From assembly GCF_053078305.1 (NCBI RefSeq), contig NZ_CP166879.1: a stretch of DNA of 64,000 nucleotides; one strand, written 5' to 3'. Below the pieces are notes generated by a model. The model was not told the DNA's origin. It was given only the letters and a program-made list of their open reading frames with translations, and ran no database searches. The position numbers were made by a program, and so were the translations under genes. Below, piece after piece: positions 22,488 to 30,712 of this stretch (position 1 is its first letter; every line of letters begins with the position of its first letter).

Positions 22488-23191
22488 TGCACGTCGGCAG
22501 CGAAGACATACCCCAGACCGCGCAGAGTTTTAATCAACATCGGCTGATGCGGGTTGAGTTCGATTTTGCGTCGTAAGCGCATGATTAATACGTCGATGGT
22601 GCGATCAAACACCTCCACGCTGTCGCTGTGGGTGAACGCCAGCAACTGCTCGCGGCTCAATACCCGACGCGCGTTTTGCGCCAGAGCCAGTAACAAGCCA
22701 TATTCGCCCTGAGTTAACTCGACATGTTGCTGAAGCGGATTGTGCAACTGGCAGCGCATGGTATCGAGATACCAGCCATTGAATGACAGCCCGGCGCTTT
22801 TCTCGTCATTAACCGCCAGCGCACCAACCCGTCGCAACACCGCTTTCAGTCGTGCGACCACCACCCGCGGGGTGAACGGTTTGCAGATGTAATCATCCGC
22901 GCCCATTTCCAGCCCGACCACCACATCAGACTCACTGCCCATGCCGGTCAACATCACCACCGGCAATGTCGGACGCAGTTTCTGGATTTGCTGCAATACC
23001 CTCAGGCCGTTGGTATCGGGTAGCATCATATCCAGCACCACCAGCGCAATGTCAGGATCGCCCTCAATACGCAATATGGCCTCCTGTCCGGTATGGCAGA
23101 CTGAAACCGTAAAGACATGTTCACTTAACACGTCCTGCAACAGTGCGCAGATAGCCGTGTCATCATCCACCACCAGCACGACGGGTTTCAT
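22484..23191 (-). CDS. OmpR/PhoB-family response regulator (REC plus winged-helix DNA-binding domain)
   Basis: ATG at 23189-23191 with GGAG 9 nt upstream (alternative ATGs at 23204-23209); VLVVDDD, LDMMLPD, C-terminal LRGLGYVF winged helix. Confidence 0.85.
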   Translation of the reverse strand: MKPVVLVVDDDTAICALLQDVLSEHVFTVSVCHTGQEAILRIEGDPDIALVVLDMMLPDTNGLRVLQQIQKLRPTLPVVMLTGMGSESDVVVGLEMGADDYICKPFTPRVVVARLKAVLRRVGALAVNDEKSAGLSFNGWYLDTMRCQLHNPLQQHVELTQGEYGLLLALAQNARRVLSREQLLAFTHSDSVEVFDRTIDVLIMRLRRKIELNPHQPMLIKTLRGLGYVFAADVH

Positions 23192-23481
23192 GGTTACACT
23201 CCGCATCATTCATCTGATTAATCATTGTGCGTACTTCTTGTCGAAGTGAAAGCTGAAAGTAATATAAATAATAAAAATATAAGTCAGGTCACATTATTGA
23301 TGATAGTAATAAATATGCCGTACTTTTCCCTCTTCAGCACAAATGCCTAATAAAATGGATCGTTCCGCTCACACTTCCACTTATTAAAGTCGCAATTTCC
23401 CAATTATGATAACGCCAGCTTTAAATGACGTATTTTGCATGGATTACATATTTACGACATAAATGATAAATGGAGATTTAT

Positions 23482-25467
23482 ATGAATAACTCTCGGTTAT
23501 TCCGTTTGAGCAGGATTGTTATTGCGTTAACCGCCGTCAGCGGCATGATGGTAAATACCGCTAACGCGAAAGAGGAAGCGAAAGCCGCCACTCAATATAC
23601 CCAACAGGTTAATCAGAATTACGCCAAATCATTACCGTTTAGCGATCGTCAGGATTTTGACGATGCCCAGCGTGGATTTATCGCCCCGCTGCTGGATGAA
23701 GGTATTCTGCGTGATGCGAACGGTAAAGTTTACTACCGCGCAGACGATTACAAATTTGATATTAATGCCGCTGCGCCGGAAACCGTAAACCCCAGCCTGT
23801 GGCGTCAGTCGCAGATCAACGGCATATCTGGCCTGTTCAAAGTCACCGATAAAATGTATCAGGTGCGCGGCCAGGATATCTCTAACATTACGTTCGTTGA
23901 GGGCGAGAAAGGCATTATTGTCATCGACCCGCTGGTGACGCCGCCTGCCGCAAAAGCCGCACTTGACCTTTACTTCCAGCATCGTCCGCAAAAACCGATT
24001 GTTGCCGTTATCTACACTCACAGCCACACCGACCACTATGGTGGCGTGAAAGGCATTATCTCTGAAGCCGATGTTAAATCCGGCAAAGTTCAGGTGATTG
24101 CCCCTGCTGGCTTTATGGACGAAGCCATCAGCGAAAACGTGCTGGCGGGTAACATCATGAGCCGCCGTGCGCTCTACTCTTACGGTCTGTTACTGCCGCA
24201 CAACGCGCAAGGCAACGTGGGTAATGGCCTTGGCGTGACGCTGGCAACGGGCGACCCGAGCATTATTGCACCGACTAAAACTATCGTCAGAACTGGCGAG
24301 AAGATGATTATCGACGGCCTGGAGTTTGACTTCCTGATGACCCCAGGCAGCGAAGCCCCAGCCGAAATGCACTTCTATATTCCGGCCCTGAAAGCCCTGT
24401 GTACCGCCGAGAACGCCACGCATACCCTGCACAACTTCTACACTCTGCGCGGCGCGAAAACCCGCGATACCAGCAAGTGGACAGAGTACCTGAACGAAAC
24501 GCTGGATATGTGGGGTAACGACGCGGAAGTACTGTTTATGCCGCACACCTGGCCGGTCTGGGGCAATAAGCATATCAATGATTATATTGGTAAATATCGC
24601 GATACCATCAAGTATATTCACGATCAAACCCTGCATCTGGCGAACCAGGGCTACACCATGAATGAAATCGGCGACATGATTAAGCTGCCGCCTGCGCTTG
24701 CCAATAACTGGGCCAGCCGCGGTTATTACGGTTCTGTCAGCCACAACGCCCGCGCGGTGTATAACTTCTATCTTGGCTATTACGACGGTAACCCGGCTAA
24801 CCTGCATCCGTATGGTCAGGTAGAGATGGGCAAACGTTACGTGAAAGCGCTGGGCGGTTCTGCCCGTGTCATCAACCTGGCGCAAGAAGCGAACAAGCAA
24901 GGTGATTACCGCTGGTCGGCAGAACTGCTGAAACAGGTGATTGCCGCCAACCCGGGTGACCAGGTCGCGAAGAATCTGCAAGCGAATAACTTTGAACAGC
25001 TGGGCTATCAGGCCGAGTCCGCCACATGGCGCGGTTTCTACCTGACCGGCGCGAAAGAGCTGCGCGAAGGGGTGCATAAGTTCAGCCACGGCACCACCGG
25101 TTCCCCGGACACCATTCGCGGAATGTCGGTCGAAATGCTGTTCGACTTTATGTCCGTTCGCCTCGATAGCGAAAAAGCCGCGGGTAAAAATATCAGCCTG
25201 AACTTCAATATGAGCAACGGCGATAACCTCAACCTGACGCTGAACGATAGCGTGCTTAACTACCGTAAAACGCTGCAATCCCAAGCTGACGCCTCTTTCT
25301 ACATCAGTCGTGAAGATCTGCACGCCGTGCTGACCGGACAAGCCAAAATGGCGGATCTGGTAAAAGCGAAGAAAGCCAAAATTATTGGCAATGGTGCGAA
25401 ACTGGAAGAAATTATTGCCTGTCTGGATAATTTCGATTTGTGGGTAAATATCGTAACCCCAAATTAA
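23482..25467 (+). CDS. yjcS: Alkyl/aryl sulfatase YjcS (metallo-beta-lactamase fold, secreted)
   Basis: ATG at 23482 with GGAG upstream; signal peptide; HSHTDHYGG metal motif; about 661 aa. Confidence 0.85.
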
Positions 25468-27001: not shown

Positions 27002-29052
27002 TGAGCGCGCTCAACTCCCTGCCATTACCGGTGGTCAGGCTGCTGGCGTTCTTTCATGAAGAGTTAAGCGAGCGGCGACCAGGCCGCGTGCCGCAGACCG
27101 TGCAACTCTGGGTAGGCTGCCTGCTGGTGATTCTGATCTCGATGACTTTTGAGATCCCTTTTGTGGCATTATCGCTGGCAGTGCTGTTTTACGGTATTCA
27201 GTCGAACGCGTTTTACACCAAATTTGTCGCGATCTTGTTTGTGGTTGCCACGGTGCTGGAGATCGGCAGCCTGTTTTTGATCTACAAATGGTCATACGGC
27301 GAACCGTTGATCCGATTGATCATCGCCGGACCGATCCTGATGGGCTGCATGTTTTTGATGCGCACCCATCGCTTGGGGCTGGTCTTTTTCGCCGTCGCCA
27401 TTGTCGCTATTTACGGGCAAACCTTCCCCGCCATGCTCGACTATCCAGAAGTGGTCGTGCGCTTAACGCTGTGGTGTATCGTTGTTGGCCTCTATCCAAC
27501 CTTGCTGATGACGTTAATCGGCGTGCTGTGGTTTCCCAGTCGTGCCATTTCGCAAATGCATCAGGCGCTTAATGATCGGCTTGATGATGCCATTAGCCAC
27601 CTGACGGACAGCCTCGCACCGCTACCCGAAACGCGGATTGAAAGAGAGGCGCTGGCGCTGCAAAAACTCAATGTCTTTTGCCTCGCGGACGATGCCAACT
27701 GGCGAACTCAAAGCGCATGGTGGCAAAGCTGCGTGGCAACGGTAACCTACATTTACTCGACGCTGAATCGCTACGATCCCACCTCTTTTGCTGATTCTCA
27801 GGCAATTATTGAACTCCGACAAAAATTAGCTTCAGAAATCAACAAGCTGCAGCATGCCATTACCGAAGGTCAGTGCTGGCAAAGCGACTGGCAGATCAGT
27901 GAAAGTGAAGCGATGGCGGCACGGGAATGTAACCTGGAGAATATCTGCCAGACGCTGTTACAACTGGGTCAGATGGACCCGAATACGCCGCCAACGCCCG
28001 CCGCCAAACCGCCATCAATGGTCGCCGATGCTTTTACCAATCCAGACTATATGCGCTACGCGGTAAAAACGCTGCTCGCCTGTTTGATCTGTTACACCTT
28101 CTACAGCGGCGTGGACTGGGAAGGCATTCATACCTGTATGCTGACCTGCGTGATCGTCGCTAATCCAAATGTCGGTTCGTCGTACCAGAAGATGGTGCTG
28201 CGTTTTGGCGGGGCCTTTTGCGGCGCGATTCTGGCGCTGTTATTCACGCTACTGGTCATGCCCTGGCTGGACAATATTGTCGAATTGCTGTTTGTGCTGG
28301 CACCGATTTTCCTGTTGGGCGCATGGATTGCCACCAGCTCTGAACGCTCTTCTTATATCGGCACACAGATGGTGGTCACCTTCGCGCTCGCCACGCTCGA
28401 AAACGTTTTTGGTCCGGTGTACGACCTGGTGGAAATTCGCGATCGCGCCCTGGGTATCATCATTGGTACCGTGGTGTCCGCGGTGATTTACACCTTTGTC
28501 TGGCCTGAAAGTGAAGCGCGCACGCTGCCGCAAAAACTGGCCGGTGCGCTGGGTATGTTAAGTAAAGTAATGCGGATCCCACGCCAGCAGGAAGTCACGG
28601 CTCTGCGCACTTATCTGCAAATTCGTATAGGTCTGCATGCGGCGTTTAATGCCTGTGAAGAGATGTGCCAACGCGTGGCGCTGGAGCGTCAACTGGACAG
28701 CGAAGAACGCGCCTTACTGATTGAACGTTCGCAAACGGTTATTCGTCAGGGCCGCGATCTTCTTCACGCCTGGGATGCCACCTGGAACTCGGCGCAGGCG
28801 CTGGATAACGCACTACAGCCGGACAGAGCAGGTCAGTTTGCCGACGCCCTGGAAAAATACGCTGCCGGTCTGGCAACCGCACTCAGCCGTTCTCCTCAAA
28901 TAACGCTTGAAGAGACACCCGCCTCGCAGGCCATCCTGCCCACCTTATTAAAACAGGAGCAACACGTCTGCCAGCTTTTCACCCGCTTGCCAGACTGGAC
29001 AGCCCCGGCATTAACGCCCGCCACGGAACAGGCACAAGGAGCCACGCAATGA
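27001..29052 (+). CDS. mdtO: Efflux inner-membrane component MdtO (FUSC/aromatic acid exporter-like)
   Basis: 683 aa; multiple TM segments; start overlaps mdtN stop. Confidence 0.9.
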   Translation: MSALNSLPLPVVRLLAFFHEELSERRPGRVPQTVQLWVGCLLVILISMTFEIPFVALSLAVLFYGIQSNAFYTKFVAILFVVATVLEIGSLFLIYKWSYGEPLIRLIIAGPILMGCMFLMRTHRLGLVFFAVAIVAIYGQTFPAMLDYPEVVVRLTLWCIVVGLYPTLLMTLIGVLWFPSRAISQMHQALNDRLDDAISHLTDSLAPLPETRIEREALALQKLNVFCLADDANWRTQSAWWQSCVATVTYIYSTLNRYDPTSFADSQAIIELRQKLASEINKLQHAITEGQCWQSDWQISESEAMAARECNLENICQTLLQLGQMDPNTPPTPAAKPPSMVADAFTNPDYMRYAVKTLLACLICYTFYSGVDWEGIHTCMLTCVIVANPNVGSSYQKMVLRFGGAFCGAILALLFTLLVMPWLDNIVELLFVLAPIFLLGAWIATSSERSSYIGTQMVVTFALATLENVFGPVYDLVEIRDRALGIIIGTVVSAVIYTFVWPESEARTLPQKLAGALGMLSKVMRIPRQQEVTALRTYLQIRIGLHAAFNACEEMCQRVALERQLDSEERALLIERSQTVIRQGRDLLHAWDATWNSAQALDNALQPDRAGQFADALEKYAAGLATALSRSPQITLEETPASQAILPTLLKQEQHVCQLFTRLPDWTAPALTPATEQAQGATQ

Positions 29053-30515
29053 TCAATCGTCAACTTTCACGTCTGCTGTTGTGCAGCATTCTCGGCAGCA
29101 CGACGCTGATTTCCGGCTGTGCCCTGGTACGCAAGGATTCTGCGCCTCATCAACAGCTCAAACCGGAACAAATCAAACTGGCCGATGATATTCATCTTGC
29201 CAGCTCCGGCTGGCCGCAGGCGCAGTGGTGGAAACAACTCAATGACCCGCAGTTGGATGCCCTGATCCAACGGACGCTAAGTGGTTCACACACCCTCGCC
29301 GAAGCGAAACTGCGGGAAGAAAAAGCGCAATCGCAGGCCGATTTGTTAGATGCCGGTTCACAGTTGCAGGTGGCAGCGTTAGGGATGCTTAACCGCCAAC
29401 GTGTCTCGGCGAACGGCTTTTTAAGCCCTTATGCGATGGATGCGCCAGCACTGGGTATGGACGGGCCGTACTATACGGAAGCCACAGTAGGTTTGTTTGC
29501 CGGACTGGATCTTGATTTGTGGGGTGTGCATCGCTCAGCGGTTGCCGCCGCCATTGGCGCGCATAATGCCGCGCTGGCAGAAACCGCAGCAGTAGAGCTA
29601 TCGCTGACCACGGGCGTAGCGCAGCTTTATTACAGTATGCAGGCCAGCTATCAGATGCTCGATCTGTTAGAACAAACTCGCGATGTGATTGATTACGCGG
29701 TAAAAGCGCACCAGAGTAAAGTGGCACACGGTCTGGAAGCGCAAGTGCCTTTCCACGGCGCGCGGGCACAGATTCTGGCGGTCGATAAACAAATTGCTGC
29801 CGTCAAAGGGCAAATCACCGAAACGCGAGAATCTCTGCGTGCATTGATTGGCGCGGGAGCCAGCGATATGCCGGAGATCAAACCGGTGGCATTACCGCAA
29901 GTCCAGACTGGCATTCCGGCGACACTCTCTTATGAGTTGCTCGCCAGACGCCCGGATCTGCAAGCCATGCGCTGGTATGTTCAGGCGTCATTAGATCAGG
30001 TGGATTCCGCGCGGGCGTTGTTCTACCCGAGCTTTGATATCAAAGCGTTTTTCGGCCTTGATGCCATCCACCTGGATACCTTATTCAAAAAAACCAGTCG
30101 CCAGTTCAACTTCATCCCGGGTCTGAAATTGCCGCTGTTTGACGGTGGACGGTTGAATGCCAATCTCGAAGGTACGCGCGCCGCCAGCAACATGATGATT
30201 GAACGTTACAACCAGTCAGTACTGAACGCGGTGCGTGACGTTGCCGTCAACGGCACGCGTCTGCAAACGCTCAACGACGAGCGAGAAATGCAGGCTGAAC
30301 GCGTGGAAGCAACGCGCTTCACCCAGCGCGCAGCCGAGGCCGCCTATCAACGCGGCTTAACCAGCCGCTTACAGGCTACCGAAGCCCGGTTGCCAGTGCT
30401 TGCCGAAGAGATGTCATTACTGATGCTGGACAGCCGCCGGGTGATCCAAAGCATTCAGTTGATGAAATCGCTGGGCGGCGGGTATCAGGCGGCTCCCGTC
30501 GTCGAGAAAAAATAA
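29049..30515 (+). CDS. mdtP: Outer membrane efflux factor MdtP (TolC/OprM family lipoprotein)
   Basis: 488 aa; lipobox LISGC; start overlaps mdtO stop. Confidence 0.9.
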   Translation: MINRQLSRLLLCSILGSTTLISGCALVRKDSAPHQQLKPEQIKLADDIHLASSGWPQAQWWKQLNDPQLDALIQRTLSGSHTLAEAKLREEKAQSQADLLDAGSQLQVAALGMLNRQRVSANGFLSPYAMDAPALGMDGPYYTEATVGLFAGLDLDLWGVHRSAVAAAIGAHNAALAETAAVELSLTTGVAQLYYSMQASYQMLDLLEQTRDVIDYAVKAHQSKVAHGLEAQVPFHGARAQILAVDKQIAAVKGQITETRESLRALIGAGASDMPEIKPVALPQVQTGIPATLSYELLARRPDLQAMRWYVQASLDQVDSARALFYPSFDIKAFFGLDAIHLDTLFKKTSRQFNFIPGLKLPLFDGGRLNANLEGTRAASNMMIERYNQSVLNAVRDVAVNGTRLQTLNDEREMQAERVEATRFTQRAAEAAYQRGLTSRLQATEARLPVLAEEMSLLMLDSRRVIQSIQLMKSLGGGYQAAPVVEKK

Positions 30516-30537
30516 AATGTCTGCCGCGTGATGGCTG

Positions 30538-30600
30538 TCACGCGGTATTTCGTTTCGTCACGTCAAAACTGACGACAGCCTGTTTTTCGTCAGAGTTTTG
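30538..30600 (+). promoter_or_regulatory. Candidate FhlA upstream activating sequence for fdhF
   Basis: Repeated TCGTCACG / TGACGACA elements about 110-170 bp upstream of the fdhF ATG; overlaps a hairpin that may also terminate mdtP. Confidence 0.4.
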
Positions 30601-30644
30601 AATAAATAGTGCCCGTAATATCAGGGAATGACCCCAAATAAAAT

Positions 30645-30662
30645 GTGGCATAAAAGATGCAT
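30645..30662 (+). promoter_or_regulatory. Sigma54 (-24/-12) promoter of fdhF
   Basis: TGGCATAAAAGATGCA, with the GG and GC dinucleotides separated by 10 nt, about 50 bp upstream of the fdhF ATG. Confidence 0.6.
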
Positions 30663-30712
30663 ACTGTAGTCGAGAGCGCGTATGCGTGATTTGATTAACT
30701 GGAGCGAGACCG

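Follow-up and report, generated by a model that had tools for sequence, protein, structure and literature searches.

The stretch of DNA analyzed here, 64,000 nucleotides long and referred to as the window, belongs to an Escherichia coli chromosome: a 401-bp query around the site of interest matches 5,419 of 5,426 complete E. coli genomes and is 100% identical to several strains (e.g., E2865, an O103:H2 isolate). In the matching E. coli genomes, the genes on either side carry the annotations mdtP and fdhF. The mdtP open reading frame occupies 29049-30515 on the plus strand and ends with a TAA stop codon at 30513-30515; it is followed by a spacer of 197 bp (30516-30712) and by the ATG of fdhF at 30713. 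The fdhF coding sequence extends from 30713 to 32860 on the plus strand as two open reading frames in one frame (30713-31132 and 31181-32860), with an in-frame TGA for selenocysteine at 31133-31135. A match to the Rfam family SECIS_2 at 31125-31179 (87.1 bits, E = 3e-19) spans this TGA and is the expected selenocysteine insertion element, whereas Rfam revealed no known RNA family in the mdtP–fdhF intergenic region.

We compared the spacer with that of E. coli K-12 MG1655 (NC_000913.3, minus strand, 4299367-4299563) and found 196 of 197 bases to be identical. The comparison with the K-12 fdhF promoter and UAS, named as a check in an earlier reading of this DNA from its letters alone (the sequence-only reading), therefore leaves a single difference, at 30637, which is A in the window and C in K-12. 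This position falls outside every element described below; it lies in a spacer of low conservation, 9 bases before TGGC. E. albertii, E. whittamii and other Escherichia also have A there, and the K-12 C therefore looks derived. The same position touches an exact 11-nt direct repeat, AAATAAAATGT, present at 30510-30520 and 30636-30646, 126 bp apart, with one copy lying across the mdtP stop codon and the other abutting the -24 element, where it is shortened in K-12 by the change at 30637; the repeat is probably due to chance in AT-rich DNA.

The sigma-54 promoter and the fdhF leader

A -24/-12 element of the sigma-54 type, TGGCATAAAAGATGCA, is located at 30646-30661 on the plus strand, with GG at 30647-30648, GC at 30659-30660 and exactly 10 bases between them. 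It begins 67 nt before the fdhF ATG and is in the correct orientation. The sequence-only reading had recognized a GG-N10-GC promoter at 30645-30662, an interval one base longer on each side than the 16-mer that we find. Using a weight matrix built on 186 sigma-54 promoters (PMC7658346, Table 2), TGGCATAAAAGATGCA scored 13.7 out of 21.2 and ranked third in the 128 kb scanned. Two intragenic sites on the minus strand outscored it, at 3045-3060 and 28958-28973 (15.4 and 15.1 versus 13.7), the latter lying antisense inside mdtO; PMC4591121 lists no ChIP-seq peak for mdtO or the other gene names looked up. The pattern TGGCAYN6TGCW occurs once in the 64-kb window versus 1.07 matches expected, such that the motif alone is not above chance; this failure to discriminate is a property of the search and gives no ground to exclude the site. 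A simple consensus scan of 30300-30900 detected 0 sigma-70-like promoters.

Published data bear directly on this element. In K-12, GTGGCATAAAAGATGCA upstream of fdhF is the sigma-54 ChIP-seq peak OS41, which lies 41-fold above threshold, is flagged as experimentally confirmed in EcoCyc and has a predicted start 19 bp downstream of the motif centre, 41 nt before fdhF (PMC4591121); the promoter 17-mer of the window is identical to the OS41 motif. Binding of the RpoN holoenzyme to the mdtP–fdhF spacer was also observed in vitro by genomic SELEX (PMC8743547). In Salmonella, the corresponding fdhF sequence is TGGCATAAAACATGCA, with a ChIP-chip signal, 29-fold RpoN-dependent expression and FhlA as the assigned activator (PMC3844500), and in Proteus mirabilis the activity of the fdhF promoter is induced by formate and reduced in fhlA and rpoN mutants (PMC7658346). 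FhlA, activated by formate, is described as binding upstream of both fdhF and hyc (PMC11291172). The claim of the sequence-only reading that fdhF has a sigma-54 promoter with an FhlA enhancer is thus borne out by the identity with K-12, by the published ChIP-seq and SELEX data and by the Salmonella and Proteus orthologues. As a side observation, the same SELEX study reports a peak for the RpoN holoenzyme with NtrC in the K-12 yjcS-alsK spacer (4,304,842 in U00096.2; PMC8743547), which, by offset from the K-12 coordinates, is expected at approximately 23,000-23,500 of the window.

Placing the start 19 bp downstream of the motif centre, after PMC4591121, predicts transcription from 30672 on the plus strand with a leader of 41 nt (30672-30712) carrying a Shine-Dalgarno sequence, GGAG, at 30701-30704. 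The 3' half of this leader is highly conserved in an alignment of 73 non-Escherichia upstream regions. The arms of an imperfect inverted repeat, at 30652-30664 and 30680-30692 (core GCATAC ... GTATGC), bracket both the -12 element and the predicted start; the transcript would contain the second arm alone, which is moderately conserved.

Enhancer repeats, their conservation and the adjacent hairpin

Upstream of the promoter lie three copies of T(T/G)TCGTCA, starting at 30553, 30570 (opposite strand) and 30585. Copy 1, TTTCGTCA at 30553-30560 on the plus strand, is part of the most conserved enhancer block (30553-30576); copy 2, identified by repeat analysis, is TGTCGTCA at 30570-30577 on the minus strand (TGACGACA on the plus strand); and copy 3, again TTTCGTCA, lies at 30585-30592 on the plus strand and together with TTTTG at 30596-30600 forms an imperfect dyad with 30563-30575. 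TCGTCA at 30555-30560 and TGACGA at 30570-30575 constitute a perfect 6-bp inverted repeat, which extends to TTTCGTCA and TGACGACA with one mismatch, and CTGACGA at 30569-30575 is complementary to TCGTCAG at 30587-30593. The inverted repeats that the sequence-only reading had placed within 30538-30600 are therefore all present, the TCGTCA/TGACGA and CTGACGA/TCGTCAG pairs as well as the third copy. Between copies 1 and 2, the palindrome CGTCAAAACTGACG (CGTCA-N4-TGACG; 30561-30574, no strand assigned) is the best local match to the published FhlA weight matrix. A distal GTCACG element at 30537-30542 on the plus strand, repeated at 30557-30562, lies inside the 3' arm of the terminator-like hairpin described below. 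The pattern TKTCGWCA has 12 matches in the 64 kb versus 8.9 expected, and 3 of these 12 fall within 40 bp at the enhancer; the repeat cluster is far from chance. The enhancer as a whole (30537-30601) occupies -135 to -71 when counted from 30672, the predicted start, and the centre of its core lies at about -105; this agrees with the earlier proposal that the repeats lie at the distance of an enhancer-binding protein, the usual range for sigma-54 activators being 70-150 bp upstream (PMC3844500).

The half-sites contacted by FhlA presumably lie within 30537-30601, and the distal GTCACG at 30537-30542 is a candidate contact. In 1989, Birkmann and Bock reportedly located the UAS of fdhF some 110 bp upstream, emphasizing a GTCACG core, which would fit the copies at 30537 and 30557. 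The FhlA weight matrix of PMC7658346 gives 30561-30574 a score of 8.1 out of 17.7, which is only rank 111 in the window; the matrix is weak and we rejected it as a site identifier on its own. A contiguous 16-mer consensus, CATTTCGTACGAAATG, is attributed to Leonhartsberger 2000 in PMC4987338; it has at least 7 mismatches both here and in the bona fide hyc-hyp region and is unusable as written, its original form probably including a spacer. Between the enhancer and the promoter, a conserved block, CCCGTAATATCAGG, occupies 30612-30625 (about -60 to -47; no strand assigned). The core consensus for IHF is WATCAANNNNTTR; a candidate IHF site in this interval, TATCAGGGAATGA, was discarded, having two mismatches to the consensus and a TTR part that, by eye, is not conserved across species. 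The NarL heptamer is TACYYMT, and none was seen by eye in 30500-30720.

We collected 80 Enterobacteriaceae fdhF loci, ranging from Escherichia to Arsenophonus, using the first 139 residues of FdhF as the query. TGGCA-N7-TGC is present 51-84 nt before the ATG in 76 of them; among the remaining four, one locus has a TGGTA variant and three are without the promoter. Identity to the window, scored after aligning 73 non-Escherichia upstream regions with MAFFT, is 0.91 for the sigma-54 16-mer (30646-30661), 0.81 for enhancer block 1 (30553-30576), 0.78 for enhancer block 2 (30585-30601), 0.70 for the block between enhancer and promoter (30612-30625; 0.36 in the neighboring spacer) and 0.65 for GTCACG (30537-30542; 0.26-0.31 in its flanks). 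By comparison, three spacers (30543-30552, 30602-30611 and 30516-30536) have identities of 0.26-0.36 and the 3' end of mdtP (30498-30515) has 0.24. The most divergent E. coli record retains every element, with its differences confined to the spacers. One record (CACSKA010000007.1), labeled Chryseobacterium sp. 18061, carries an fdhF of the Enterobacteriaceae type (96% identical across 139 aa), preceded by the same promoter and enhancer, and is probably mislabeled or contaminated.

Spacing is more constrained than sequence. Relative to the T of TGGCA, 62 of 78 loci have the start of the enhancer core at exactly -91, 4 at -92 and 8 at -82 or -83; in the same 78 loci the leader length varies from 25 to 58 nt while the distance between enhancer and promoter is near-constant. 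Likewise, 69 of 78 loci have TGWCGA (copy 2) at -76 or -77 relative to TGGCA, 61 of 78 have copy 3 at -61 or -62, and GTCAY lies at -106 to -110 in approximately two thirds of the loci, whether a hairpin is present or absent. Such fixed spacing would be the expected outcome if an upstream activator had to sit on a particular face of the helix. The -82/-83 class apparently accompanies a promoter variant, TGGCATAAAACCTGCA, for example in Pluralibacter-like genomes.

A terminator scan identified a hairpin at 30522-30547 on the plus strand, beginning 7 nt past the mdtP stop codon, with arms CCGCGTGA (30524-30531) and TCACGCGG (30538-30545), 11 pairs and a 4-nt loop. Its predicted RNA fold is strong (-18.1 kcal/mol, z = -4.8, with 0 of 200 shuffles as stable) and it is followed by a broken U-tract, TTTCGTTTCG, at 30548-30557. 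Judging from these features, the hairpin most likely terminates mdtP transcription. Folded as RNA, the TCGTCA/TGACGA and CTGACGA/TCGTCAG repeats form only weak structures, of -7.9 and -8.3 kcal/mol (z about -1.8), and with a distinct strong hairpin just upstream we rejected the UAS repeats as the mdtP terminator. It had been suggested from the sequence that the hairpin-capable enhancer repeats double as this terminator; that suggestion fails insofar as the hairpin is a separate, adjacent structure overlapping only the first 10 bases of 30538-30600, but it retains some truth in that the 3' arm of the hairpin carries the conserved GTCAC.

A strong hairpin around GTCAC or GTCAT recurs where an mdtP-like open reading frame ends about 130 nt before the promoter, in lineages that include Escherichia, a Kluyvera, Superficieibacter and Pseudocitrobacter. 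In some lineages the stem shows compensating changes, such as CCGCATGA/TCATGCGG in one of the aligned loci (L025), and in others GTCAC is retained without a hairpin. The constraint on GTCAC looks protein-related, with the terminator apparently fitted around it, because GTCAC is kept elsewhere in the absence of a hairpin, while hairpin-bearing lineages build their stem around GTCAC or GTCAT.

Control of fdhF and its alternatives

The promoter, enhancer repeats and leader exist in the window, match K-12 and are conserved in both sequence and spacing. We consider it almost certain that they form the native control region of fdhF, which encodes formate dehydrogenase H, a component of formate hydrogenlyase. 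By analogy with published studies of the identical DNA in K-12 and of orthologues, the promoter would be occupied by sigma-54 and its activity would require FhlA, RpoN and formate. In the proposed mechanism, sigma-54 RNA polymerase would form a closed complex on TGGCATAAAAGATGCA (30646-30661), unable to initiate by itself. Formate-sensing FhlA would occupy a composite enhancer at approximately 30537-30601 (about -135 to -71 from the predicted start), composed of GTCA/TGAC-type half-sites, namely the three T(T/G)TCGTCA copies, the inner CGTCA-N4-TGACG palindrome and the distal GTCAC. The intervening DNA would then loop, allowing FhlA to contact sigma-54 and to open the promoter by ATP hydrolysis. 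The closed complex and the looping and ATP-dependent steps are proposed because of the published K-12 work on identical DNA and of established knowledge of enhancer-binding proteins. When formate accumulates anaerobically, fdhF would be transcribed from about 30672 with the 41-nt leader and its GGAG at 30701-30704. The separate hairpin upstream (30522-30547), whose 3' arm overlaps the distal GTCAC, most likely ends mdtP transcription.

Several other explanations have to be weighed against this one. The repeats at 30538-30600 might mainly act as RNA hairpins that terminate mdtNOP, and not as protein sites, their place before fdhF being incidental; the region does adjoin the end of mdtP, it is rich in inverted repeats, and a 91-nt segment folds better than its shuffles (z = -2.9). 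This is, however, highly improbable, as the strong hairpin is a separate structure at 30522-30547 and the TCGTCA/TGACGA repeats fold weakly. The repeats are also conserved in genera that lack the end of a co-directional gene close by, and their distance from the -24 element is fixed, for which a terminator would have no reason. The identity of the activator leaves somewhat more room. The hyf control region is under HyfR as well as FhlA, and the half-site class found at fdhF also occurs there, which would be compatible with a different or additional sigma-54 activator, such as the FhlA paralogue HyfR, using the enhancer instead of FhlA alone. We regard this as unlikely, given that FhlA is the activator assigned to fdhF in the literature on E. 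coli, Salmonella and Proteus (PMC11291172, PMC3844500, PMC7658346) and that our analysis gave no sign of a second activator.

The possibility that the GG-N10-GC element is a chance match or a silent sigma-54 site, with fdhF transcribed from another promoter, draws on the expectation of roughly one such match in every 64 kb, and is extremely improbable. The motif is conserved in the right orientation at 76 of 80 loci, it is occupied in a ChIP-seq experiment and listed as an experimentally confirmed promoter (PMC4591121), its orthologues depend on RpoN (PMC3844500, PMC7658346), and the consensus scan of 30300-30900 offered 0 sigma-70-like promoters to replace it. The strongest argument against chance is the conservation of sequence together with spacing across genera.

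A more specific extension of the sigma-54/FhlA reading supposes a physical coupling between the mdtP terminator and the enhancer of fdhF, with GTCAC at 30537-30541 serving both as an FhlA-related contact and as part of the 3' arm of the stem. In that case, FhlA occupancy and read-through from mdtNOP could influence each other, and the conserved block at 30612-30625 could have a role in binding or bending. Two observations favor the idea: lineages with a co-directional upstream gene built their stem around the same GTCAC, and the distance between enhancer and promoter falls into two classes only, about -91 and about -82. It is a tentative proposal, and we consider it rather doubtful.

Significance and comparison with other sigma-54 enhancer systems

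The sigma-54 promoter and FhlA enhancer of fdhF are a known, textbook control region, studied since the late 1980s, and their recognition here carries little weight as a discovery. What the alignments appear to contribute are small additions, i.e., the near-invariant spacing between enhancer and promoter, the conserved block at 30612-30625 and the terminator stem overlapping the conserved GTCAC. The case also serves as a calibration, in that the raw sequence was enough for a reader without tools to recognize both the sigma-54 promoter and the enhancer correctly. With regard to method, promoter motif matches alone are non-significant, and it is context, cross-species conservation and published data that carry the case. 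The fdhF promoter and enhancer furthermore provide formate-responsive parts for biosensors, PfdhF with FhlA being in use as a formate biosensor (PMC6540204).

The closest known system is the FhlA- and sigma-54-dependent promoter and UAS of K-12 fdhF (Birkmann and Bock 1989), which is the same DNA with every element identical and only 30637 different. The K-12 hyc-hyp, hydN and hyf control regions resemble fdhF in having clusters of GTCA/GTCG/TGAC/CGAC half-sites upstream of sigma-54 promoters. YGWC-N5-TGWCR, the class to which the fdhF palindrome belongs, occurs exactly once in each of the three regions, which serve the other four operons under FhlA control in K-12 and where 0.1 matches are expected in 811 nt; this shared 14-mer class represents consistency and not independent proof, since the pattern derives from a matrix built on these same sites. 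The three regions differ from fdhF in the number and arrangement of their half-sites, and the hyc-hyp enhancer serves two divergent promoters. Unlike this comparison set, the fdhF region has no good IHF-like site as judged by eye against the consensus. Beyond the FhlA regulon, NorR at norVW and NtrC at glnAp2 show the same architecture, with multiple sites approximately 70-150 bp upstream of a -24/-12 promoter and action via looping and ATP hydrolysis (PMC3844500, PMC2831303). In contrast to the fdhF sites, NorR recognizes GT-N7-AC, and the signals are nitric oxide for NorR and nitrogen status for NtrC, as opposed to formate at fdhF.
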